A DNA stretch of 28,110 nt from UHGV virus genome UHGV-0095852. One strand, 5' to 3'. The translations under genes and the position numbers were made by a program. This stretch comes from a virus. Under the pieces are notes generated by a model. That model was not told where the DNA came from. It made no database searches and saw nothing but the letters and a program-made list of their open reading frames with translations. Below, piece by piece: positions 1-14,283 of this stretch (position 1 is the first letter of the stretch; each line of letters opens with the position of its first letter).

Positions 1-142
1 GGCTTCTTAGGCCGCTACCATCATCAGATCATCGTTTGCATTTACTTTAATGGTCGGGTTCTAAACCGCCGCAAAGTCGCTAACCATGACGAAAACCCTA
101 AAAAAGCCCACCCGAAGATGGGCAAATACGCTACATCTCACA

Positions 143-221
143 CAAGAAAGAAGCCGACTGCCTGAGCTGGATTCACTTTCAAATGCCCGCAGAAAGGGAT
201 CACAAGTCGGCTTCTTTCTTG
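143..221. repeat. perfect 17-bp inverted repeat (CAAGAAAGAAGCCGACT / AGTCGGCTTCTTTCTTG) separated by 45 bp
   Basis: Read directly: 143-159 is the exact reverse complement of 205-221; lies in an ORF-poor region. Confidence 0.6.
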
Positions 222-706
222 ATGCGGCACTCTCTCCGCCCGTCACCGCTCTGTCTCGGTTGTCGCGTTTGCCACGCCAGCCGTAACGAGGTTTAAAGTC
301 TTTGCACGTTTCCATCACTCGACTGCCGTCTGTGGCTGTTCGTTGCAGCGGGGGTGCCTCCCCCTGGGGATATCCCCGGCCTTACCCCATTCTTTCAAGA
401 CACAATGCAAGGCCGCATCCGCATAGGTGCATTACCGCAACATTAAGGAGACTTAGGGCAAAAGGTAATCGCCACAAAAAAATCCCTATGCCTCCTTAAT
501 GTTGAGGATGTGCATTGATGATGATTCGATGCGGCGAGTCCCGTTACTCTCTGCCGGACCATCATCAATGAACATCTTAAAAAGACCTTCCGTGGCTCAA
601 CATGTCTTGTTGTTTACTCCGTAAAGTGCTCTCTCTGAAACCACTTTACGCACTAAACCTGCTGAACTTTGGCTTGCTCGGTGCCAAAGCGAGCCCCTGT
701 ATGCAT

Positions 707-727
707 GTAATTTTCTAACACTTTAAT
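707..727 (+). promoter_or_regulatory. operator-like motif, copy 1 (core TTTTCTAACA)
   Basis: Intergenic; shares the (A)TTTTCTAAC core with five other intergenic copies. Confidence 0.3.
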
Positions 728-859
728 TTGTTATTTGCTGGTGGGCGAACAACAACCAATAAGTGACTATCAAGCCCAGCAAGCGAAATGTGGCAACGCT
801 CCACCAGCAAGGAAAATTCTAAGTTAAGTTACTCTCACAATCAATATGTTCGTTTAATG

Positions 860-880
860 AAATTAGATTTCTAACATATT
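860..880 (+). promoter_or_regulatory. operator-like motif, copy 2 (AAATTAGATTTCTAACATATT)
   Basis: 20 of 21 identical to copy 3; abuts the stop codon of the 879-2099 gene. Confidence 0.4.
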
Positions 881-2099
881 ATTTCCCATAAAGATCTTCT
901 ACGCCCCCATTCTTCTTGTCCCATTCGTTAGCCCACACCCGGCAGGCATCAATAATTTCTTGACGACGGTCGCCCTGCATAAAGGGGATGCTTTCATGAA
1001 AACTACTTGGGATACAGGCCACGCTGAATACGGTATCAAACGCAGTCTGTTTGATAGCTTCCAACGTCTCTGGGCGCATTTTCAATTCATCGATCGGCGC
1101 ATCCTTAGAGTCCATAATCCGGCGATGCAGGCGCGGGAAATCAGTCTCCAGGTACGCCATAATTTTATCTGCCAGGCATTCGTCTATATCGGTATTCCAG
1201 TCCGTTTCGAAGCCGGGCAGGCGATAGTAAAGCGGCGTTCCCCATACTGATGGGATCACATCCATCGTCAGCAGGCGGTTGGTTCTAATTTGTTGATGGT
1301 AATTAGCCGTCAACAGAGCTTCACCACGCTGACCAGTCTCCGCAACCAGACCATGCGGGTACTCATGGATATAGGCAATAGCATCCACCCCGTCATACAT
1401 GAGCGGGAATGTCTCTGGCCTTTGTCCCATACCACAAGCGCGGTTCAGATCATGACCAAGCTGTGAGCACTCTCGTTTCAGCGTTTCAATAATGTTCTGC
1501 GCTGCTGCTAACTTTTTACGCAGTGTGACGCCTTCGCCTTGATACTTAATGCATTGCTGATTCAGCTCTGTTAAACGCTCTTTTAGTTCCCGACGCTCTC
1601 TTTTCAGCGCACGGTTATCCTTCTCCGCAACATCCAGTCGTTTTGACAGACTGGCTGGATAGTCTTTTTTGTAACGACTCAAATCGGCTTCTGCGGATTT
1701 GCGCAGTGTGTTTGCCTGTTCAAGACGCGCTTCCAGATTGCCGATCTCACTACGCATATTCGCGGCAAATTGATTAACAGCATTGCCAAGACTTTCAACT
1801 GTCGCTGATACGCCTGTGACTTGTGAAAAACGGATCAAGCCATCATTAACGGCTTGTTGATATTCCTCAAACTGATCCACCAGCTTGTTGTAATCAACCG
1901 TCCCTTCCTCAAGTAGCTGGTTGATCTCCGCGACCAGGTTATCAGTAGTGGCAATGACGCTCTCATGTAGCCGTCTGGACAGGTCATCCCCCGGATTCCG
2001 CTTTTGAATAAGGGCGATCTGTGTCCGCAGCGTTTCAATCGCGGCTGAGATGATTTCCAGATTAGAAGTATCAGTTTGTTGACTCATTGCAGTTCCCAT
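879..2099 (-). CDS. hypothetical protein, 406 aa; N-terminal about 230 aa coiled-coil-like (heptad-rich, E/K/R/L/Q rich), uncharacterised C-terminal domain
   Basis: Long uninterrupted ORF; own regulatory motif upstream and bidirectional terminator further upstream; no family recognised by eye. Confidence 0.6.
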   Translation of the reverse strand: MGTAMSQQTDTSNLEIISAAIETLRTQIALIQKRNPGDDLSRRLHESVIATTDNLVAEINQLLEEGTVDYNKLVDQFEEYQQAVNDGLIRFSQVTGVSATVESLGNAVNQFAANMRSEIGNLEARLEQANTLRKSAEADLSRYKKDYPASLSKRLDVAEKDNRALKRERRELKERLTELNQQCIKYQGEGVTLRKKLAAAQNIIETLKRECSQLGHDLNRACGMGQRPETFPLMYDGVDAIAYIHEYPHGLVAETGQRGEALLTANYHQQIRTNRLLTMDVIPSVWGTPLYYRLPGFETDWNTDIDECLADKIMAYLETDFPRLHRRIMDSKDAPIDELKMRPETLEAIKQTAFDTVFSVACIPSSFHESIPFMQGDRRQEIIDACRVWANEWDKKNGGVEDLYGK

Positions 2100-2112
2100 T
2101 GTTTTTTTTGCA

Positions 2113-2133
2113 AAATTAGTTTTCTAACATATT
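2113..2133 (+). promoter_or_regulatory. operator-like motif, copy 3 (AAATTAGTTTTCTAACATATT)
   Basis: Sits 14-34 bp upstream of the start codon of the 879-2099 gene; contains TTAG-N4-CTAA dyad. Confidence 0.4.
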
Positions 2134-2171
2134 TTATTAGTATGAGGACAAGAGCGAAAGATGTGATAAAC

Positions 2172-2198
2172 AAAAAACCCGCTAATCGGCGGGTTTTT
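2172..2198 (-). terminator. rho-independent terminator (bidirectional), stem ACCCGC/GCGGGT, 6-nt loop, A-run and T-run flanks
   Basis: Hairpin 2177-2194 with T tract on the minus-strand reading; separates the small-ORF operon from the 406-aa gene. Confidence 0.6.
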
Positions 2199-2204
2199 GA
2201 GCGG

Positions 2205-2519
2205 TTATTGTGTCATTGCCTGGTAGATAAAATACACGATGCATACCGGTACGATAGCCCATTGCAGCAATGAAAGCAGCCTCATGGCTGTCATGGGAGT
2301 AACTCCGTCTACGTATTCCTTCTCTGACATTTTCCCTAACCAACTAACCGACAAAAGGGTCGAGTTCTCCCCCATTTCCAGCTCCCTGAGGGCTTCCCGG
2401 ATTAAAGGCGCTGTTACCACCTTGCGGGCAGTGTTGAGCGTAATGCTCCGCGTCCTCCCGGCGTCATCGGCAAACGCCAGGTTCACATGATATTTTTTGC
2501 TCAATGTACAAACTCCCAA
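2205..2519 (-). CDS. small hypothetical protein with hydrophobic C-terminal segment; true start may be internal (Met49 has an AGGGAG RBS)
   Basis: ORF begins at TTG; C-terminal LLSLLQWAIVPVCIVYFIY looks transmembrane; preferred over the antisense plus-strand ORF because the terminator is oriented for minus-strand transcripts. Confidence 0.3.
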   Translation of the reverse strand: MGVCTLSKKYHVNLAFADDAGRTRSITLNTARKVVTAPLIREALRELEMGENSTLLSVSWLGKMSEKEYVDGVTPMTAMRLLSLLQWAIVPVCIVYFIYQAMTQ

Positions 2520-2701
2520 TCATCAGCGCCTGTACTTTCCGGGGTAATGTGAACCTTATCACCAGTGACAATATTCCGAGCCTCTATTGTTCCATTGTTG
2601 TGTTTCAACAACTCAACACACAATGGTTGCTGCCAGGAACGACGGCGAGCAACAACGTTAGCACCAGCAGGGATAAGTTCAGCCACGTTAAGTAAACGCA
2701 A
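2501..2701 (-). CDS. small hypothetical protein, 66 aa
   Basis: TTG start preceded by GGAG at about 9 nt; lies directly downstream of the nuclease gene. Confidence 0.3.
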   Translation of the reverse strand: MRLLNVAELIPAGANVVARRRSWQQPLCVELLKHNNGTIEARNIVTGDKVHITPESTGADDWEFVH

Positions 2702-2715
2702 AACGATTTCTCCGT

Positions 2716-3207
2716 TTAATCAAGACAAACATATTCCGTGATAGCTTTTATGGCTTCAGCGGCACTGCGCGCCTCAAAGCAGTAGTAACCTGCTTCGGTG
2801 AGGCGAGTCATCCAGACGAGTTGTTCGGGAGTCAGGCGATTTCTCCCATGTTTCATCTCAATGCGCATTCCGTGGTATCCCCCACAAGCAAGGTCTATAG
2901 AAAGATCGGGATATCCCTTCTTTTGGCCCTCTGCCACCATTTTTATTGCCGTCCTTATGCCTCGCAGACCGCCGTTTGGAGTGGCGTGTGTATGCTCATA
3001 CACATAGCGCATATTGCGATACAACCAATCCAGGACGCGTACCTGCTCGTAATGCTCATGGTTCCTTTTGATTAGATCTGGGTTTTTCTCCAGTTCTCTG
3101 AGAGCTGCGGCATGTGGGGATGTTTCAGAATATTCACTGCGACGCCTTCTTTTTCTCGCTATTTTTCTAACACACCCATTGATAGTAAATAAGCGAAATA
3201 ATAACAA
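2716..3207 (-). CDS. VRR-NUC-like (PD-(D/E)xK) nuclease; start uncertain, probably downstream of 3207
   Basis: GYPDLSIDL ... IEMK motif pattern typical of VRR-NUC; operator-like motif copy 4 lies inside the N-terminal extension, so the real start is probably later. Confidence 0.55.
   Translation of the reverse strand: MLLFRLFTINGCVRKIARKRRRRSEYSETSPHAAALRELEKNPDLIKRNHEHYEQVRVLDWLYRNMRYVYEHTHATPNGGLRGIRTAIKMVAEGQKKGYPDLSIDLACGGYHGMRIEMKHGRNRLTPEQLVWMTRLTEAGYYCFEARSAAEAIKAITEYVCLD
3158..3175 (+). promoter_or_regulatory. operator-like motif, copy 4 (TATTTTTCTAACAC)
   Basis: Same core as copies 1-3; positioned in the presumptive 5' region of the nuclease gene. Confidence 0.3.
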
Positions 3208-3346
3208 CTGCGTTAGATTTGTAAAACAAGAGAGATACTACTCAAGGCTGGGCTATATGCAACAGGTCGGATTTGCTTTTAGAGTAAAAAGTGACCTTAA
3301 TCAACAAGGAGGGTAAATCGCATGGCATTTACCCAACTTGTTATTT

Positions 3347-3607
3347 TTAAAGGTTTATTTTATCCGGTTCGGATATTTCTGTGATTGTCTTGTCGATTGC
3401 GATCAACCACCCTTCATAGGTTAAATCATCAACAAGCTCTACCAGTTTGTCTTCTGTATGAGGGAAGTATACCCAGCTCCAGCTCGCTGGGTTTTCTGCT
3501 TTTCGCAGCGTAAAAACCTTCTTGTAACGGTGAAACTCAAGGACATACCCCTTCGATATGGAATATTCCTTTAGGTCTTCGACCGTAAACCTACGATTCT
3601 TTCGCAT
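3347..3607 (-). CDS. hypothetical protein, 86 aa
   Basis: ATG start 2 nt after the stop of the upstream gene; GGGG run 8 nt upstream. Confidence 0.5.
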   Translation of the reverse strand: MRKNRRFTVEDLKEYSISKGYVLEFHRYKKVFTLRKAENPASWSWVYFPHTEDKLVELVDDLTYEGWLIAIDKTITEISEPDKINL

Positions 3608-4080: not shown

Positions 4081-7000
4081 TTAGGCCGCATCGGCGATTA
4101 TTTTACGCAGTTCATCTACCGAGTAACGAGTAGATACCATCCACGCCGGACGGTCAAAGTTCACATCAGCAACCGGGTTTGCTTCAAAATTCCAGAAACG
4201 CCCGCCAATCTTCTTAATCGCGTCTTTGGCGTTCCGTATTGTCGAGGAACCTGGCTGGTCGGCAATGAGATAAACCGCGCCAACGTCTTCGCTGACGCTC
4301 CACCAGCGCCCGCGAACACGCGCCTTAGCGCGAATCGGCTTATCATTAACCACAATGATATAGTCATCATTCGCCGCTTCATCAGCTCTGGCTTCAGCCA
4401 CTGCCGCCTGCTCTTCTCTTTTGCTTTCAGCCTGCTCAAGCCTTTCCGCGATCTCTGATTCAGTGGCCCCGCCGTTTTTCAGCGATACATAGTCCTGCCA
4501 CGTTGCCGATTTGAGCGCATCCGGCAACTCATTCACATAGTCGCCGTCTTTCAACTCACGGGCGCGACGGGTGGCCATTTCTACCAGGCGATTAACAGAA
4601 ACAGCATCAGCAAAATCGTCCTTACTAATGTGTTTTTCATCAAATGCATTGATGACAGCCCCCACCTTAATCCACTGCGCTGCTGGCGAATCCAGAGGAT
4701 TATCGGCCTGAACAATGGCTAATTTCGCTCCATCGACACCATTATTAGCCAGCTGCTCCAATGCCGACCAGCCATCGGCATCGCTGAGTGATTTATATTG
4801 CTCAAACAATGCATCGCGCCAGGCCACCAGCGCAGCTCGTGTTTTCTCAATTTTCGCCGTAATTTTCGCGGCCTTCACCTGATTAAACATCCGTTCAATG
4901 TCATCAGTGTTGCTAAAGGCTTTCATCCTGCCCTGGAATAAACGGTATGCCACCACGGTCTTCCAGAAAGATTCCAGCCCTTCTCCGGACGGTTTACGGA
5001 ACAGGCTAAGAATATCTTCAGAAGTAACTTTATTAAGTGAGCGACCGGACAAACCACGCCCTGCCATCCAGTTTTCAAACTCCTGGGAAACATCATCCAT
5101 CGTGGCCTGTGACCCCCATGCCTGCATTCCCTGGATGTAATCATATCCATACAATGCCTGGAGGAATCCCTCGCCGTCCACGACATTCAGCGGGTTATCA
5201 CTGGCTTGTATTTTTGCCACTTCACGCTTCAGCGCCTCGTCGTTGCCATCAGGATATATCCATCGCTCAGGTGCTATATCCGATGCTCGCCCGATTTTTT
5301 GGCCTATCACGCCATCATAGGTCGATGACAGCGCGATCTGACCATCATCTGTGCGATAAGCCCAGTATTTAATAGCTGAACCACCGCCCCATACTCTACC
5401 AGGCTTCCCGGCAGTGACATTCATTACCCCATTGCGAATAGCATCATAGAACTGATCGCGCGTAAGTGTTGTTGATAGCTGGTGGCATTGAACACCACGT
5501 GCAGCTGTTTCACGCGATTCTGCAACTCCCTCTTCAAAGGTTACCGATTCAATTATCAGGTTAAAGGGCAAAAATAATGCCGTCCCCGGAGAACGAGAGT
5601 AACGACTAGCCACATCCAGCCAGGATATGCGGCACGTACACCCGCCCCTTTCCGCATCAATGGCGGTAACACGAACAATTGCTGTCGTATTGTGATTCTC
5701 ATCGATGATCGCGCGATAATGGCTGCCCTTGTGCAACAAGATATTTTTCTCAGTGCGTACATACTCCTGTGGGTTCTGCAATACATCGGCATCAAGCTCC
5801 AGAACCCCGGCTTTAATCGCACGTTCCAGATCACCACGAGAACGTTTCATAACGGTGTCAGCGTCTTTAGCTCTGGTGATCGCAAAGCGTAGCTCCCGCA
5901 CACGTTTTCTGTAGTCTCGCAACTGTTCCAGAACATATTTCTGCCCGTTCCTGTTCGTCCCCGCTTTAATCAGGTCGTCAAGATTGCGCTGGTAATGCTC
6001 TACCTGCTCCATCGCGCTTTTCAGTTCTGTCTCCATCATGCCGATATCTTTCCCGGCAGCATTCGCCGCTTTCAGGTAGTTATCGAGAGCATTATTGGCT
6101 TCGCGTAGGGCTTTCAGTTTCAGACGTTCTTCACGCTCTTGCGCCTGACGACTCATGATTGCACGGCGTTCTTCCGGATTTGCCGCCAGCATAATGGCGC
6201 GTTCATCTGCGTCATCCGCATCACCATTGGCGATCTCTGACATGTCTGAGGTCATCACCATATTGATCCAGTCCTTCTTACGTTTCAGCGTATCCAGACG
6301 GAAGTCATCAAATGTGCCTTTGCCACAATAGTAGTGAACATTGACCTTTTCTTGTGGTGAGCCTACCCGAGCGCCGCGCCCATTACGTTGGTCGATACTG
6401 GCAGGAGTCCAGGGTAGTGTCAGATGGTGGATATCGGTTGTACCGATGTGCAAGTTAATACCTACTTCAGCCTTCTTGTTACAGATTATGATGCGCGTGC
6501 GACCTTCGTTATAGTCGGCGGCAATACCTTCCATGCCCTCAAGGCCAGCATCATTTTTAGCTGAGAGATAATCCTCATATTGGGCAAGTTTGCTGTAGTA
6601 GGTTTCCCATGCACCTTCTTTGTATTCACCGTTTTTATTTGGCGTAGGTTCAGTCGGCTTATTCACCTTCTTCAGCTTGACGCCGCCAGCCTGGCTAACT
6701 GTCGTCGCATTGATAATGCCTATCTCCTGCTCCGGCATTTGCAGTGCACTGGCAATAATACGGCGCAGCTTCTGGTGCTGGGCTTTTTCATCAATGAAGA
6801 CGATTTGTTTACCGTTCTTCAGACCTTCACGAAGGTTTTCGATCAGCGCGGCATACTTCGGCGGGATGGGGTGTGATACCTGCTGCATATCAATACCGGC
6901 AGCCGCAATGGCCTTCAGTATTTCAGCTTCCAGTTCAATGCCAGCACGTATTTCAACATGCGACGGATGTTCGCTAAAGGTGGTCTTCACTACCTTGCTG

Positions 7001-10000
7001 GTACGCGTACTGACCAGCCCACCAGCGCCATCTTCTTCGGCCTCGTCTGCATCATCTGCCACTTTACCGCCAGCTACTTTTGGCAGGGCATCAGCAATAG
7101 CTTTTACCTTGTCTGCAAGCTCAACGGGGAACTGGAATGTAATCGCACTGGCATACAGATCAGGATCTATAGCAACCTTATCCATGTCGCGGATGATGGA
7201 GAAGATGAAATCATCCGGTTTTTCGTTTGTGATATGCCCGTTTTCATCGACCGTCAGCGCATCTTTACTACTTAACTCCTGTGCACGCTTACGAAGTTCT
7301 TCGTAAATGGCCTCTTGCTCTCCTGTCATCGGGATCTGCAAGGTATTCTCGACAATATCAGGGATTTTTACCGTCGCCCCGACGTCCGCAGCAGTCTTCA
7401 GAGTAGTCCAGCGATGGAAAATACCACGCAGACCATCCAGGTTCTGGAAGCCCACCAGTCCCTGCTTCTCTTCCACCTCACCGGAAATTTTCTGAACCTG
7501 AACTGTGGCTGTTTTACCGAACACGCGAACGAAATCATCCGGCGTAACAATACCCATGCGCATCCACTCTTCCTGCGGAATGACAGTAGACAGCATGTTG
7601 AAAGCATCAATCGGGCTGTTCACCAGCGGTGTTGCCGTCAGCATAACCACACCACGCCCGTTGTTGCGTTTCATCATGTACGCAGCTTTTACAGCCATGT
7701 CGCGGGCCATTTTGGATACTGCCGGGTTAGGCAAATATGCCAGTTGCCCCGCTTCGCGCCCGGCGCTAAAGGAGTTGCGGTAGTTATGTCCTTCGTCGGC
7801 AATTACGCTATCGAAGTTCATATCCTCAAAGTACGGGATATTCTGCTTCTTCGTTGTACCGGTATTTGCGGCCTGGTCCTTAATCTTGTTCTTCTTCTGC
7901 GCGTCACGGTGTTTGCCAGATGCCAGGTCAAGACGCCCCATTTCCACAGCATTAAAGACCGCTTGCTGTGAGTTTTCCTCAATGGTTTCTTCTCGTAGCG
8001 GGATAGACGCGAATTGCTCTTTTGTCATGATGACCGTTCGCCAATTTGACGACGGGATCATGTTCATGCGCTGAACGATAACGGCGCTGGCGGACTCTTT
8101 CACAACATTTCGGGTAAGAGGCTGCCCGTTACTGTCGAGGCGTGGTTCGCCATTTTCATCAAGCACCGGCGCGGTCAGAATATTTCCGCTGTCATCACGA
8201 ACTTCATCCAGACCGATAAACATCATATTGGCGAAGGCATCAGCACTGTAGAAGCTCTGTGCCTCGTGATACCAGTTCTGATAAACCGCCTTCGGAACAA
8301 CAATACACGTGCGTTTAGTGCGACCTGTTTCGAAGTTATACGCCTCAAGCGCAAGCGCGGTCGTGGTTTTACCCAGCCCGGTACCAAATCCCATGATGCC
8401 GCGCCCATCTTCTGACAAGCGCCGAACTTCTTCATTCTGATAAGTCAGAGGAATGCGCTTCCCACTAATCCCCTCCAGGCCAAGCGGTGCGTCAGAATGC
8501 GTAAACGGGATGAAGCCATTAAATGCGTCGTTATAGTCGCGGGCTATCTGATCAGCCTGCGGGTGAGTGCGTAACCAGTCGTTGAAGCTAATTTCCAGTT
8601 GAGCAATCTTATCCAGGTACTCGTTAGCGTTCTGCCCACGCGGTTTAATGCCGTTCAGGTAGTTTTCTAACTGGTTCAGGAAGCCGTCTTTATTGTTGGC
8701 CTTCTTGAACTCATTCCCGTTTTTGCCGTTTACGGTTCGTAGTTGATAGCCAGTAAATACCCCGTCCTTACCTTCGTAATCGTCCGGAGATACCAGAATG
8801 CCGTCCTCAACCTTAAGGTCGGGTTCTGTATACTTAAACTCGTCATAGCCCTGCTCTGCCAGGAACTCTTTTATCAAGCGGCGATCCAGCCAGCGGGCGT
8901 TCAGATTAACGGTGACTTTATTTAGTGGCGTGAAAATGCGTTTCTCTTCGATTTTCGCCAACTGACGCTCAAAGTTCGCTTTCTGCTCACCTGTTGACGC
9001 ATCACGCCAGCCCACCAGCAATGCTGTTTTGGTTGCAATATCGCCGCTGGTGGCGCGGTCCATCGGCAGCAGGCAGCCATACCCATCAATAGCGATATCA
9101 TCAAATTTCGCCAGGTATTCCAGAGCAGCATCGTCGTCTCCTGGCAGTTCGCCAGCAAACGCCTCACGAAAATCGTCCAGTGTGATTGGATTAAGTGCCA
9201 CGTCACTGAAAAGGTGGGTTACAACTTGTTCCGGGCGTGTAAAGTCAATACCGGCAGCACCATCCGTTACATCAAGTCGTCCAGCAAGGAGGTCAGAAGC
9301 AGAGCCGTCCTGTTTCACGTTGCCAGTGAAAGTCATCCAGTTTTTAGCGCCAGCTTCAGCAATCCCATTCAGCTTAATCGCGTGCGGCGGACCATACTTC
9401 GCAATTTCGGCTTCCGCCAGGCGCGCGGCATCAGCAAGTTCATCATCAACATTTTCCCCCAGATTACGCTTATCAAGCGCCTTGTTGATCAACTGCCCTA
9501 TCAGTGCGCCGCGCATAACGCGTTCTCTGTCTTTTTCTCTCTGCTTGCCAGCAAAGCGAATCATTGCCGCTACTTCATCACTGATAACCGACGGATAGTC
9601 GGACGCGATCGCCGATATCTGGTCCCATGACAACGCCAGAATGCCATTTGTTGACTGAAACGCGATCTGCAGATCACCAAACGTCGTAACACCATATCGA
9701 TTTACATCAAGAGCGGAGGATTTGGTTGTCGCGTCCTTGACCCATTTCAGGCCATCAAACTCATGCCAGATGCCGCCTACAAGGCGTTTATCGCCCACTT
9801 TCGCGCCCTGCCATGCCTGAGTAGTTACGCCAAGCAAATCCCAATTAATGCGGCTTTCAAAGCGGCGCGATAGAGCGGTTTTCATCGACTCATTGGATAC
9901 ACGACCGTCCTTTTTCACCACCAGGGTATTGCGGAAGCTGGTACGCTCCATATCGCCGTAAACAAATCGCTTCCCTTCGGTTGTAAACCATTTCCCTTTG

Positions 10001-10920
10001 AGGAAGGTATCCCAAAGGACGTTTGCCGACTTGAGCGTTGCATCATCCGTGTCGGGGATCATCTCCAGGAAGGTTTCCGGGTGTTTACGCAATACCCATA
10101 CGTCCACCACTGTATCTGTACCGGATTCGCTGAACGTACCAGAAGGCATACGATGTGCGCCCAAAAATTCCGCTTTACGGCTGACTTTATCGCGCAATTT
10201 TTTGTATTTCGTACCATCGGTCATGCCATTCGGCACCACCAATACAATTAGTCCACCAGGCTTAACCTTGTCGATCGTGCGCAGCACAAAGTAATTGCCA
10301 ACGTTCTTCTCGTTTGCATATGCCGGATCAAGCCCGGCAACGCCGGAACGCCCTTCACCAAACGGTACGTTACCAACAGCGTGGTCATACATTGCGTCTT
10401 TCGCCGCCAGCGCCTCAAACGCCCCGATATTCACATCGTCTTCCGGGTGCAAAAGCTGGTTTATTCGACCGGAAATCGGAGATAGTTCGGCGCTGGTCAT
10501 TATCATGCCCTGCCGTTTTGTCTCCTGGAAAATACCTGTGCCCGCTGATGGTTCCAGTACGTGCCCGCCATCAATACCGTAGTCAGCAAACAGATCCCAT
10601 ATACCTTCAGCCATAAACTGTGGTGTGTAGTATTCGTATTGGCTGCCCTCACCATCTGTCAGGCCGCCTTCACCGGTATACCCGGCAAGAATCTGACGTT
10701 GTTCGTCAGTTAATTTCGCCCCATCGAAGCCGGGCGGAAGGGAATTAAGAAGCTCTACTGCGGCGTTGTTTGCTGCCCGCCGTGTTTTTTGAATGCTGAC
10801 ACCATCGACTTTCTTAACGCCAAAGGTCGCAACAGCACGTAATTTATGCAACCGACTAACAATTTCAATCAGTTCGCCTAAGCTGGAGGCTTCACTGATT
10901 GAATGAAGTAGTTTATCCAA
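4081..10920 (-). CDS. darB: DarB-like antirestriction protein: N-terminal N6-adenine methyltransferase domain fused to SF2 helicase
   Basis: 2279-aa ORF; MTase motif I LEPSAGTGIF and motif IV GNVPFG; Walker A GFGTGLGKTT; DEGH box VIADEGH; helicase motif VI QRNGRGARVG; GAGGGGG RBS. Confidence 0.9.
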   Translation of the reverse strand: MDKLLHSISEASSLGELIEIVSRLHKLRAVATFGVKKVDGVSIQKTRRAANNAAVELLNSLPPGFDGAKLTDEQRQILAGYTGEGGLTDGEGSQYEYYTPQFMAEGIWDLFADYGIDGGHVLEPSAGTGIFQETKRQGMIMTSAELSPISGRINQLLHPEDDVNIGAFEALAAKDAMYDHAVGNVPFGEGRSGVAGLDPAYANEKNVGNYFVLRTIDKVKPGGLIVLVVPNGMTDGTKYKKLRDKVSRKAEFLGAHRMPSGTFSESGTDTVVDVWVLRKHPETFLEMIPDTDDATLKSANVLWDTFLKGKWFTTEGKRFVYGDMERTSFRNTLVVKKDGRVSNESMKTALSRRFESRINWDLLGVTTQAWQGAKVGDKRLVGGIWHEFDGLKWVKDATTKSSALDVNRYGVTTFGDLQIAFQSTNGILALSWDQISAIASDYPSVISDEVAAMIRFAGKQREKDRERVMRGALIGQLINKALDKRNLGENVDDELADAARLAEAEIAKYGPPHAIKLNGIAEAGAKNWMTFTGNVKQDGSASDLLAGRLDVTDGAAGIDFTRPEQVVTHLFSDVALNPITLDDFREAFAGELPGDDDAALEYLAKFDDIAIDGYGCLLPMDRATSGDIATKTALLVGWRDASTGEQKANFERQLAKIEEKRIFTPLNKVTVNLNARWLDRRLIKEFLAEQGYDEFKYTEPDLKVEDGILVSPDDYEGKDGVFTGYQLRTVNGKNGNEFKKANNKDGFLNQLENYLNGIKPRGQNANEYLDKIAQLEISFNDWLRTHPQADQIARDYNDAFNGFIPFTHSDAPLGLEGISGKRIPLTYQNEEVRRLSEDGRGIMGFGTGLGKTTTALALEAYNFETGRTKRTCIVVPKAVYQNWYHEAQSFYSADAFANMMFIGLDEVRDDSGNILTAPVLDENGEPRLDSNGQPLTRNVVKESASAVIVQRMNMIPSSNWRTVIMTKEQFASIPLREETIEENSQQAVFNAVEMGRLDLASGKHRDAQKKNKIKDQAANTGTTKKQNIPYFEDMNFDSVIADEGHNYRNSFSAGREAGQLAYLPNPAVSKMARDMAVKAAYMMKRNNGRGVVMLTATPLVNSPIDAFNMLSTVIPQEEWMRMGIVTPDDFVRVFGKTATVQVQKISGEVEEKQGLVGFQNLDGLRGIFHRWTTLKTAADVGATVKIPDIVENTLQIPMTGEQEAIYEELRKRAQELSSKDALTVDENGHITNEKPDDFIFSIIRDMDKVAIDPDLYASAITFQFPVELADKVKAIADALPKVAGGKVADDADEAEEDGAGGLVSTRTSKVVKTTFSEHPSHVEIRAGIELEAEILKAIAAAGIDMQQVSHPIPPKYAALIENLREGLKNGKQIVFIDEKAQHQKLRRIIASALQMPEQEIGIINATTVSQAGGVKLKKVNKPTEPTPNKNGEYKEGAWETYYSKLAQYEDYLSAKNDAGLEGMEGIAADYNEGRTRIIICNKKAEVGINLHIGTTDIHHLTLPWTPASIDQRNGRGARVGSPQEKVNVHYYCGKGTFDDFRLDTLKRKKDWINMVMTSDMSEIANGDADDADERAIMLAANPEERRAIMSRQAQEREERLKLKALREANNALDNYLKAANAAGKDIGMMETELKSAMEQVEHYQRNLDDLIKAGTNRNGQKYVLEQLRDYRKRVRELRFAITRAKDADTVMKRSRGDLERAIKAGVLELDADVLQNPQEYVRTEKNILLHKGSHYRAIIDENHNTTAIVRVTAIDAERGGCTCRISWLDVASRYSRSPGTALFLPFNLIIESVTFEEGVAESRETAARGVQCHQLSTTLTRDQFYDAIRNGVMNVTAGKPGRVWGGGSAIKYWAYRTDDGQIALSSTYDGVIGQKIGRASDIAPERWIYPDGNDEALKREVAKIQASDNPLNVVDGEGFLQALYGYDYIQGMQAWGSQATMDDVSQEFENWMAGRGLSGRSLNKVTSEDILSLFRKPSGEGLESFWKTVVAYRLFQGRMKAFSNTDDIERMFNQVKAAKITAKIEKTRAALVAWRDALFEQYKSLSDADGWSALEQLANNGVDGAKLAIVQADNPLDSPAAQWIKVGAVINAFDEKHISKDDFADAVSVNRLVEMATRRARELKDGDYVNELPDALKSATWQDYVSLKNGGATESEIAERLEQAESKREEQAAVAEARADEAANDDYIIVVNDKPIRAKARVRGRWWSVSEDVGAVYLIADQPGSSTIRNAKDAIKKIGGRFWNFEANPVADVNFDRPAWMVSTRYSVDELRKIIADAA

Positions 10921-12717: not shown

Positions 12718-13046
12718 AGTTACGGCCTCACTAACAGGTTTAACAACCTGCTACCCGCTGTCAAACAGGTGGCAGGACGTGACAGGGTTGACAGACTGGC
12801 GTTAGTGAAACCAGCAGGCCTAAGCCTCCCCATCACGCCCCACCATAATTCGGGCGTAACGCGGTTTACGGACACAAAAATACCGCAATATCGGAAATCT
12901 GCGGTTGTCCGCACTAACATTCAGGCTGTCAAACCTGGTCGCAGAATTTGCTACGACGGCATGAATATAAGCCTGAAAACATGGAAGATCAACTAAAAAT
13001 TTCAGCAATGGATGACTTCAGTCGATGATGCAGATCATACATTCCG

Positions 13047-13080
13047 ATTTAGAAACAGCAAATTAATTTTCTAATACAAA
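13047..13080 (+). promoter_or_regulatory. operator-like motif, copy 5, composite dyad (ATTTAGAAA ... TTTTCTAAT)
   Basis: Two inverted half-sites 12 bp apart, upstream of the immunity-like operon. Confidence 0.4.
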
Positions 13081-14261: not shown

Positions 14262-14283
14262 ACTATGTTAGAAATTTAACTTC
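14262..14283 (-). promoter_or_regulatory. operator-like motif, copy 6 (minus-strand reading GAAGTTAAATTTCTAACATAGT), overlapping palindrome AGTGTAT-ATAA-ATACACT
   Basis: Same TTTCTAACA core in the opposite orientation; intergenic. Confidence 0.35.

Follow-up and report, generated by a model that had tools for sequence, protein, structure and literature searches.

Predicted C1-type operators around an ortholog of P1 pmgS in a D6-like phage-plasmid of the P1 family

Introduction

The locus analyzed here lies in UHGV virus genome UHGV-0095852 (a stretch of 28,110 nucleotides, nt; hereafter the window), and its closest described counterparts are the pmgS gene and the operators of the C1 repressor in phage P1. 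In the part of the P1 record that was examined, C1 operators are annotated at c1/coi, lpa, ban, ppp, gene 26, pmgT, and pmgR, and the annotation of the pmgR operator states that it 'controls expression of pmgR and pmgS'. In a set of 77 P1-like phage-plasmids, the pmgS gene itself (P1_gp093, named ShtB in P7; PHROG 1660) belongs to the 21 most conserved genes (PMC9603915). A pmgS deletion was made in P1 and belonged to a set of knockouts without plaque defect or antirestriction change (PMC9024508), and CRISPR interference scores the P1 gene as non-essential (PMC10695390).

The original prediction, made from the sequence of the window without database searches, singled out an open reading frame (ORF) on the minus strand, 879-2099, as a candidate repressor-controlled cargo or defense gene bracketed by two operator-like motifs. 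From its megablast matches, the window is identified as a D6-like plasmid prophage (phage-plasmid) of the P1 family: it shares 90% identity with Escherichia phage D6 (8212-11502) over positions 1-3300 and 100% identity with plasmid NZ_CP122510.1 from an E. coli pig isolate over positions 1-2300, and at least 105 plasmids contain 80% or more of positions 1-2300. We consider it fairly likely that the locus, taken as a whole, consists of the pmgS gene of such a prophage and of operators of its master C1-type repressor. The phage family, the gene, and the type of regulation are already known.

Identity and Conservation of the pmgS Gene

The genes to which the following sections refer are:

879-2087, minus strand: pmgS ortholog, 402 amino acids (aa) from ATG 2087
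2205-2519, minus strand: pmgR-like gene, the last before the terminator (BLASTP to P1 PmgR, E 1e-6; D6 annotation)
4081-10920, minus strand: darB-like gene

The ORF exists as mechanically called (879-2099, 406 aa), and its product matches PHROG 1660 over the full length (E 9.3e-141; residues 5-405 on profile positions 1-404 of 405). The BLASTP alignment with P1 PmgS is collinear over residues 15-399 (E 6e-14, 20% identity), and the invariant residues common to both proteins include DDL near the N-terminus and the C-terminal W...NGG. Judged by the PHROG match, the collinear alignment, the pmgR-like neighbor, and the conserved gene order, the ORF is almost certainly an ortholog of P1 pmgS, with which it also shares length and a three-part architecture. 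A tblastn search with the window protein did not reach P1 pmgS; the link came via PHROG, pairwise BLASTP, and profile searches. Translation probably begins at ATG 2087, since homologs are 402 aa long, NCBI calls the equivalent coding sequence from the second ATG, and the first ATG (2099), in an alignment of upstream regions, sits within a purine-rich stretch that is likely the ribosome-binding site.

The gene is present and syntenic in all relatives examined, down to 45% identity, and it adjoins a pmgR homolog in the window, in D6, and in distant relatives. In the D6 record the genes of this region, all on the minus strand, are named darB-like, ulx-like, orf13, pmgM-like (VRR-NUC), orf11, pmgR-like, and 'PmgS-like', and the order darB-ulx-...-pmgM-like-...-pmgR-like-pmgS is kept in relatives whose PmgS proteins are 45-52% identical. 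The GC content of the ORF is 49%, vs. 47% for the window. Together with the P1 genetics cited above, these features mark pmgS as a conserved core gene of the P1 family that is dispensable for plaques in P1.

The surroundings of the gene differ from those in P1, where pmgM, pmgR, and pmgS are located at 78-84 kb and not beside darB. Here the pmgS block adjoins darB/ulx and no pap gene follows. Whereas pmgR and pmgS are contiguous behind one promoter in P1, here pmgR ends the darB unit, and a terminator and a separate promoter with its predicted operator precede pmgS. What both elements have in common is that pmgS adjoins a pmgR homolog and lies behind a repressor operator, which is predicted here and annotated in P1 as the C1 operators OpmgRa and OpmgRb. 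The gene order in the P1 record is darB-ulx-lxc-mod-res. The original prediction had argued from the location of the P1 type III restriction-modification genes; the location that it gave, distal to darB, is correct for P1, but in the window this place is occupied by the pmgM, pmgR, and pmgS homologs.

Directly downstream of ulx, an 86-aa ORF (3347-3607, minus strand) is found at the position of the P1 co-repressor gene lxc (82 aa). Similarity of this ORF to P1 Lxc was sought and none was detectable, in agreement with a study that found no Lxc gene in D6-like plasmids (PMC6799933). Separately, we observed a 17-nt inverted repeat (1162-1178 / 2217-2233, ATTTTATCTGCCAGGCA / TGCCTGGTAGATAAAAT, 16/17 complementary) with arms 1 kb apart, one within pmgS and the other within the 3' end of the pmgR-like gene; this repeat may be a chance occurrence.

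Promoter and Terminator Upstream of pmgS

Three features lie between the pmgR-like gene and pmgS:

2131-2158, minus strand: predicted pmgS promoter, -35 TTCGCT (2158-2153), 16-nt spacer, -10 TAAAAT (2136-2131)
2114-2133, plus strand: motif copy 1, AATTAGTTTTCTAACATATT, overlapping the final three bases of the -10 element of pmgS as well as its predicted transcription start
2173-2198, both strands: two-way intrinsic terminator, which on the minus strand ends the darB-to-pmgR unit

The sequence preceding pmgS was compared in an alignment of the window and D6 with two additional D6-like plasmids and two distant relatives. The -10 element occupies an invariant position, reading TAAAAT in the window and TATAAT in the distant relatives, and the sequence TTAGAAA directly after it, which is the motif core on the gene strand, is itself invariant. 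In the distant relatives (45-52% identity), the aligned promoter reads TTTACA/TTTACT-N16-TATAAT, and a second motif half, in inverted orientation, lies over its spacer. In the window, an operator at 2133-2114 would cover the end of the -10 element and the predicted start site, which is the standard arrangement for repression by occlusion. The bidirectional terminator that had been noted upstream of the ORF was also recovered: it consists of a 10-bp stem with five G-C pairs that is flanked by an A-run and, on the opposite side, a T-run (-14.2 kcal/mol, z = -3.8). Its position is kept in relatives at 45-52% protein identity, but the hairpin there is a different one.

Predicted Operators of a C1-Type Repressor

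Besides copy 1, the window contains the following copies of the motif:

861-880, plus strand: motif copy 2, AATTAGATTTCTAACATATT, which overlaps the stop codon of pmgS (879-881) and precedes the next leftward -35 by 16 nt
705-722, plus strand: third, weaker copy, GTAATTTTCTAACACT, with the core TTTCTAACA at 712-720; conserved in D6 at 8918-8926
3159-3174, plus strand: weaker copy (two mismatches) just downstream of a promoter-like site at 3225-3198; conserved in D6 and two plasmids
13063-13078, plus strand: weaker copy (two mismatches) between repL and the c4 antisense RNA/icd/ant module; D6 equivalent present
14264-14279, minus strand: exact core copy between the pro-like and repL-like genes, just upstream of repL

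The two copies that flank pmgS lie on the same strand and, as had been predicted, are nearly identical (19 of 20 positions; consensus AATTAG(A/T)TTTCTAACATATT). The repeat between them extends weakly to 34 nt at 79% identity, and copy 2 is conserved in D6 and two other D6-like plasmids. The copies at 705-722, 3159-3174, 13063-13078, and 14264-14279 come in addition to those of the original prediction. With at most three mismatches the motif has three matches in the window, vs. 0.01 expected. A looser pattern, TTANNTTTCTAACATA, with at most two mismatches has five copies vs. 0.24 expected, and the 9-mer core adds the copy at 712-720, which brings the total to 5-6 copies vs. 0.24-0.31 expected.

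The D6 genome carries 14 copies (at most two mismatches), vs. ~0.7 expected, and 13 of them are intergenic. They are located 15 nt upstream of c1; upstream of lpa, repL, the hrdC-dmt genes, pdcB, the simB-like gene, and orf52; between repL and c4/icd/ant; on both sides of ref; downstream of cre; and on the flanks of pmgS. In the plasmid that is identical to the window, an exact motif precedes the gene for a 345-aa C1-like protein by 15 nt and another copy precedes lpa; the 16-mer found 15 nt upstream of the c1-like gene, in this plasmid and in D6, recurs unchanged within copy 1. The C1-like protein of the plasmid is related to P1 C1 (E 8e-8, 20% identity, 345 vs. 283 aa).

The consensus of the P1 C1 operator is ATTGCTCTAATAAATTT. 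In our own alignment, the motif shares 10-12 of 17 positions, the TCTAA core included, with P1 operators (ATTGCTCTAAT...), and the consensus of the D6 type, A(A/T)TTA(G/A)NTTTCTAACA(T/C)A, differs from the P1 operator at 5-7 of 17 positions. The match is partial (related, not identical), as expected for a diverged repressor. Given these positions and this resemblance, the motif is very probably the binding site of the D6-type C1 repressor, i.e., a predicted operator. It shares with the P1 operators an asymmetric sequence of ~17-20 bp, a dispersed and intergenic distribution, an overlapping or flanking position relative to promoters, and the occurrence in single and inverted two-copy forms, and it is located before c1, lpa, pmgS, and a ban-type unit, as annotated in P1. 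The difference is in sequence, which fits a different immunity specificity and the larger C1-like protein, and no Lxc homolog was found at the lxc position. The term 'operator-like' used in the original prediction was therefore apt for a dispersed, intergenic, and promoter-associated motif that precedes c1, lpa, repL, c4/ant, ref, and pmgS. The analysis provides a usable operator consensus for the D6 immunity type and an operator map of the window, in which pmgS, the leftward non-coding/tRNA unit, repL, c4/ant, and possibly the pmgM-to-pmgR genes would be under repressor control.

With regard to the last-named genes, a strong promoter-like site (3225-3198, minus strand; TTTACA-N16-TATTAT with TG, 10/12 matches) is followed by the operator-like copy at 3159-3174. 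With its start called at TTG 3207, the pmgM-like ORF contains both sites in its 5' end, so that either the true start is elsewhere or an internal promoter under repressor control serves the pmgM-to-pmgR genes. In P1, C1 operators closely precede pmgL-pmgM and closely follow pmgM. At the other end of the map, the C4 antisense RNA (12765-12850) and its a1/b1 target (12918-12970) are above the Rfam threshold, with repL directly upstream. Since operator-like copies flank repL, the lytic replication and antirepressor modules would form consecutive repressor-controlled units, in an order that differs from P1.

The Next Leftward Unit

Downstream of pmgS, on the same strand, the next transcription unit shows two features:

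816-844, minus strand: sigma-70-type promoter found by scan, TTGATT-N17-TAGAAT (-35 844-839, -10 821-816)
106-126, minus strand: intrinsic-terminator-like hairpin, GCCCATCTTCGGGTGGGC followed by T6, at the start of a P1-conserved segment

Both hexamers of the promoter are invariant among the aligned D6-like plasmids. The distant relatives (45-52% identity) have TGTTAGAAAA directly after the pmgS stop codon, followed by TTGATT-N17-TACAAT. In pEC361_3, copy 2 is paired with a second, inverted copy that covers the -35 element, and this pair resembles the two-part Oban operator of P1. The arrangement suggests that the copy at 861-880 probably serves the leftward promoter (844-816) and is not the far boundary of a cassette. 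The copies at 705-722 and 861-880 have the same orientation and lie 156 bp apart, start to start, on opposite sides of this promoter; the spacing (~15 helical turns) would suit looping or cooperative binding of repressors, which is speculation on our part. C1-mediated looping occurs in P1.

No terminator was found by the terminator scan between the pmgS stop codon and the 844-816 promoter, so transcripts of pmgS probably read through into the next unit. Thus, of the independent single-gene module that had been proposed, the separate, operator-overlapped promoter behind a terminator stands, but the bracketing is not supported, since copy 2 probably belongs to the next promoter and no terminator follows. 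The unit begins with ~700 nt of untranslated sequence and continues into the P1-conserved segment at 126-1, where the hairpin 106-126 is the first terminator for transcripts from either pmgS or the 844-816 promoter. Window positions 1-126 are 95-97% identical, in reverse orientation, to P1 68855-68982, a segment that is located downstream of Oban/Pban and overlaps an annotated 'dicF-like region'. In D6, the conserved segment is followed in the same orientation by tRNA-Asn, tRNA-Thr, a tRNA-Ser-like gene, and tciA/B.

By position and shared downstream sequence, the 844-816 unit appears to be the counterpart of the C1-controlled Pban unit of P1 (dicF-like region, tRNAs, tciABC, and ban). In both cases an operator-controlled promoter would be followed by a non-coding stretch, the distal part of which is the 95-97% identical segment, and then, as seen in D6, by tRNAs and tciA/B. 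The two units differ in the distance from promoter to conserved segment (~690 nt here vs. ~160 nt in P1) and in the placement of operators, which here flank the promoter (upstream of the -35 element and ~90 nt past the predicted start) rather than overlap it. A DicF covariance model had no match in window positions 1-900.

Domain Architecture of PmgS

The AlphaFold model of the full-length protein (predicted local distance difference test, pLDDT, 73) contains four long helices at residues 9-217, a beta-rich middle part with helices at ~225-330, and a compact helical C-terminal domain at ~331-396; the C-terminal 191 residues were modeled with pLDDT 80 and a predicted template modeling score (pTM) of 0.76. 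The N-terminal half is therefore a coiled coil, as originally described, and the matches to it in Pfam, PADLOC, and NCBIfam are sub-threshold coiled-coil noise. A single-sequence search of the PDB with the protein likewise returned only sub-threshold coiled-coil matches, and the middle domain had no convincing match.

The original prediction could not assign the C-terminal domain to any family. Structural comparison of the modeled domain gave the following match scores:

RNA polymerase alpha C-terminal domain (alpha-CTD; 1z3e_B): 8.1, 63 residues at 1.9 A
RAD51C N-terminal domain: 6.9
XRCC3: 6.7
NusA AR2: 5.0

The same local matches to this domain were given by Foldseek, which returned nothing at E below 0.001 for the full model against the PDB or for the C-terminal model against viral structures. 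The modeled domain has the five-helix fold with two helix-hairpin-helix (HhH) motifs. A profile of the family searched against PDB sequences matched alpha-CTD (E 1.1e-6) and the RAD51 N-terminal domain (E 1.4e-6), and among diverse family members 7 of 27 match PF03118 (RNA_pol_A_CTD) and 7 of 27 match PF14520 (HHH_5), two Pfam families to which the window protein alone has no match. Modeling and profile searches thus indicate that the C-terminus is an (HhH)2 domain of the type found in RNA polymerase alpha-CTD and the RAD51 N-terminus, and a part of PmgS that could previously not be assigned gains a domain assignment. Compared with the (HhH)2 domains of alpha-CTD, of the RAD51, RAD51C, and XRCC3 N-termini, and of NusA AR2, it is here fused to a long coiled coil and a middle domain, and its hairpins, like those of the D6 and P1 clades, are degenerate. 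Distant homologs have canonical hairpins, KG(I/L/F)G (..KGIGxxTA..), whereas the window protein has IPFMQGD at the hairpin and the P1 clade is without glycine there.

Family Distribution and Genomic Neighborhoods

A profile search of 1.84 billion representative proteins retrieved 153 clusters (50% identity) at E ≤0.001, which are mostly 350-470 aa long and match end-to-end. The family occurs in the P1/D6 phage-plasmids and in unrelated temperate phages of Vibrio, Aeromonas, and Pseudomonas, and we sampled the neighborhoods of these distant homologs locus by locus. In Vibrio phages douglas 12A4 and 1F273_PE002, a DNA methyltransferase gene starts at, or within a base or two of, the stop codon of the PmgS-like gene, and DnaC-like, Ant, Ref-like, and YfdP/Q-like genes are nearby. 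The gene order is ExoVIII, RecT, integrase, small ORF, PmgS-like, small ORF, and Dam in Aeromonas phage phiARM81mr and RecT, Gp157, and PmgS-like in Pseudomonas phage 15b. Two IMG/VR contigs have a gene for a YqaJ-domain exonuclease immediately upstream of the PmgS-like gene, preceded by RecT in one of them (L028), and on a third contig VRR-NUC and then a C5-methyltransferase come before it. Every sampled locus belongs to an early DNA-metabolism region, and head or tail modules are not among them. A conserved small partner protein encoded downstream of the PmgS-like genes was not found in three phages examined. As far as the searchable literature shows, neither these recombination/methylation neighborhoods nor the (HhH)2 assignment of PmgS have been described.

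One E. coli record (P0014, 480 aa) is a P1-type PmgS in which the first ~80 residues match the N-terminus of a C5 methyltransferase (PF00145, E 9e-11). It could be a rearrangement or an assembly or annotation artifact and was not used as evidence, although the fusion is curious in view of the methyltransferase genes beside distant PmgS-like genes.

Proposed Role of PmgS and Alternative Explanations

In the proposed scheme, the C1-like repressor of a lysogen would bind at 2114-2133, over the -10 element and start site of pmgS, and keep the gene off, and would also occupy the operators around the next promoter (844-816). Upon induction or C1 inactivation, pmgS and the next leftward unit would be transcribed early, with the terminator at 2173-2198 isolating pmgS from the upstream darB-to-pmgR unit. 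PmgS would oligomerize via its helical half, and the (HhH)2 domain would engage DNA or a DNA-bound partner, so that the protein would act alongside phage recombination, replication, nuclease, or methylation functions. As a tentative proposal, based on the domain assignment and on the gene neighborhoods of distant homologs, PmgS may be an early, non-essential accessory factor of DNA transactions. More tentatively still, the whole family may consist of uncharacterized early proteins that join a coiled coil to an (HhH)2 domain and serve either RecT/exonuclease or methyltransferase modules or as an alpha-CTD decoy. One example of such a role, if the proposal is true, would be the tethering or bridging of DNA in recombination-dependent replication. 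It would explain the strict conservation of pmgS in P1-like elements despite its laboratory dispensability for plaques, and the database label 'head morphogenesis/scaffolding' would be wrong. The proposal offers a testable hypothesis for a long-standing P1 gene and is of moderate, specialist interest only.

Three points weigh against the explanation of the locus given here. The -35 element of pmgS is weak (TTCGCT) and the promoter was missed by a consensus scan; the operator assignment is drawn from position and from resemblance to P1; and the Gly-hydrophobic-Gly hairpins are lost in the window protein and in P1 PmgS, so that DNA binding may be weakened or replaced by protein binding.

Among the alternatives, the one that survives best is that PmgS is a decoy of alpha-CTD acting on host transcription, which would compete for UP-element DNA, for activators, or for NusA and would gain multivalency from its coiled coil. 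The highest structural score is indeed to alpha-CTD, but RAD51-N, XRCC3-N, and other (HhH)2 domains match almost equally, the neighbors of distant homologs are recombination and methylation genes and not transcription factors, and the P1 clade is without an R265-like residue. We regard this activity as unlikely.

A morphogenetic role, as head scaffold (GenBank record of D6) or as sheath-related factor (P7), is less probable again. It is suggested by names such as 'putative prohead scaffolding protein', 'PmgS-like head morphogenesis', and, in P7, 'ShtB, sheath contraction', and scaffolding proteins are often helical or coiled-coil, so that the N-terminal half could act as an assembly scaffold. 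The labels vary by record (D6, P7, PHROG 1660), however, between 'prohead scaffolding protein', 'head morphogenesis', 'sheath contraction (ShtB)', and 'DivIVA domain-containing protein', and they appear to be unverified inheritance from early annotation, none having support in the evidence found. For P1 the morphogenetic reading is already largely refuted. The P1 deletion mutant plaques normally; the paper on the P1 virion proteome assigns nine head proteins and its main text never mentions PmgS; and P1 scaffolding is viewed as residing in the N-terminus of the capsid protein. Moreover, pmgS lies behind a predicted repressor operator and not among the late operons, its product ends in the (HhH)2 domain, it is not adjacent to gene 23, the prt/pro-like genes are ~12 kb away, and the distant homologs are encoded in early recombination/methylation regions of unrelated temperate phages. 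Because of these early neighborhoods, the P1 genetics, and the placement of P1 scaffolding in the capsid protein, it is improbable that PmgS is a virion or scaffold component.

For the motif itself, a reading as the recognition box of the late-promoter activator Lpa, which would make pmgS a late gene, is very improbable. The motif does hold a short inverted repeat (TTAGA..TCTAA), and P1 late promoters carry a conserved 9-bp inverted repeat (PMC10695390). However, copies precede c1, lpa itself, repL, c4/ant, and ref, and none precedes the major late structural and packaging operons (pacA, the sit-like tape-measure gene, genes 22, 23, and S, and the lydA-darA and prt-pro blocks); the motif also looks unrelated to the annotated -22 regions of two late promoters in P1 and instead resembles the C1 operator of P1.

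The least credible alternative, with hardly any probability left to it, is the single-gene cargo module with a defense or exclusion function: pmgS does have its own promoter and operator behind a terminator, occupies the darB-relative position of P1 mod-res, and is dispensable for plaques in P1, as accessory genes are, but it is the ortholog of a gene from the most conserved set of P1-like phage-plasmids (PMC9603915), is syntenic at 45-52% identity and found in at least 105 D6-like plasmids with ordinary GC content, and its deletion in P1 caused no antirestriction change (PMC9024508). The only PADLOC matches were coiled-coil ones to JetC/LmuB arms (best E 4.8e-5, 19 bits), confined to residues 8-220, with no real defense-family match. 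If C1 represses pmgS, the gene would be off in the lysogen and give it no protection, which is the reverse of what a prophage defense gene does. Comparison of the locus across P1-family relatives, which the original prediction had proposed, revealed a kept gene order and not patchy cargo. The clear homology that it had named as speaking against a defense role was found in the sense of a conserved core phage gene, the 'morphogenetic' label itself being unproven. The bracketed defense cassette was a false lead, behind which stand a conserved core gene and ordinary repressor operators of a known phage-plasmid family. Variable cargo (a moron) was considered as well and is ruled against by the synteny in all relatives examined, the GC content (49% vs. 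47%), and the lack of a downstream terminator.

Observations on the tRNA Region

The distal part of the leftward unit yielded some minor observations. A weak Rfam match to 'permuted tmRNA' (transfer-messenger RNA) was obtained at window positions 7-112 (minus strand) and at D6 8218-8391 (minus strand), with 22.8-24.1 bits vs. a threshold of 47 (E ~0.02), and ARAGORN called no tmRNA at the window stretch. Its 3' part, GCAAACGAUGAUCUGAUGAUGGUAGCGGCCUAA, would encode ANDDLMMVAA-stop, which resembles the E. coli tmRNA tag ANDENYALAA and may do so by chance. The stretch lies in the conserved segment, whose sequence is 95-97% identical among P1-like phages and several hundred plasmids. Besides detecting a fourth D6 tRNA gene, tRNA-Met (CAT) at 6084-6159 (minus strand), which is absent from the feature table examined, ARAGORN agrees with Rfam in placing on the minus strand the three tRNA genes at 7145-7850 that the D6 RefSeq record NC_050154.1 lists on the plus strand.

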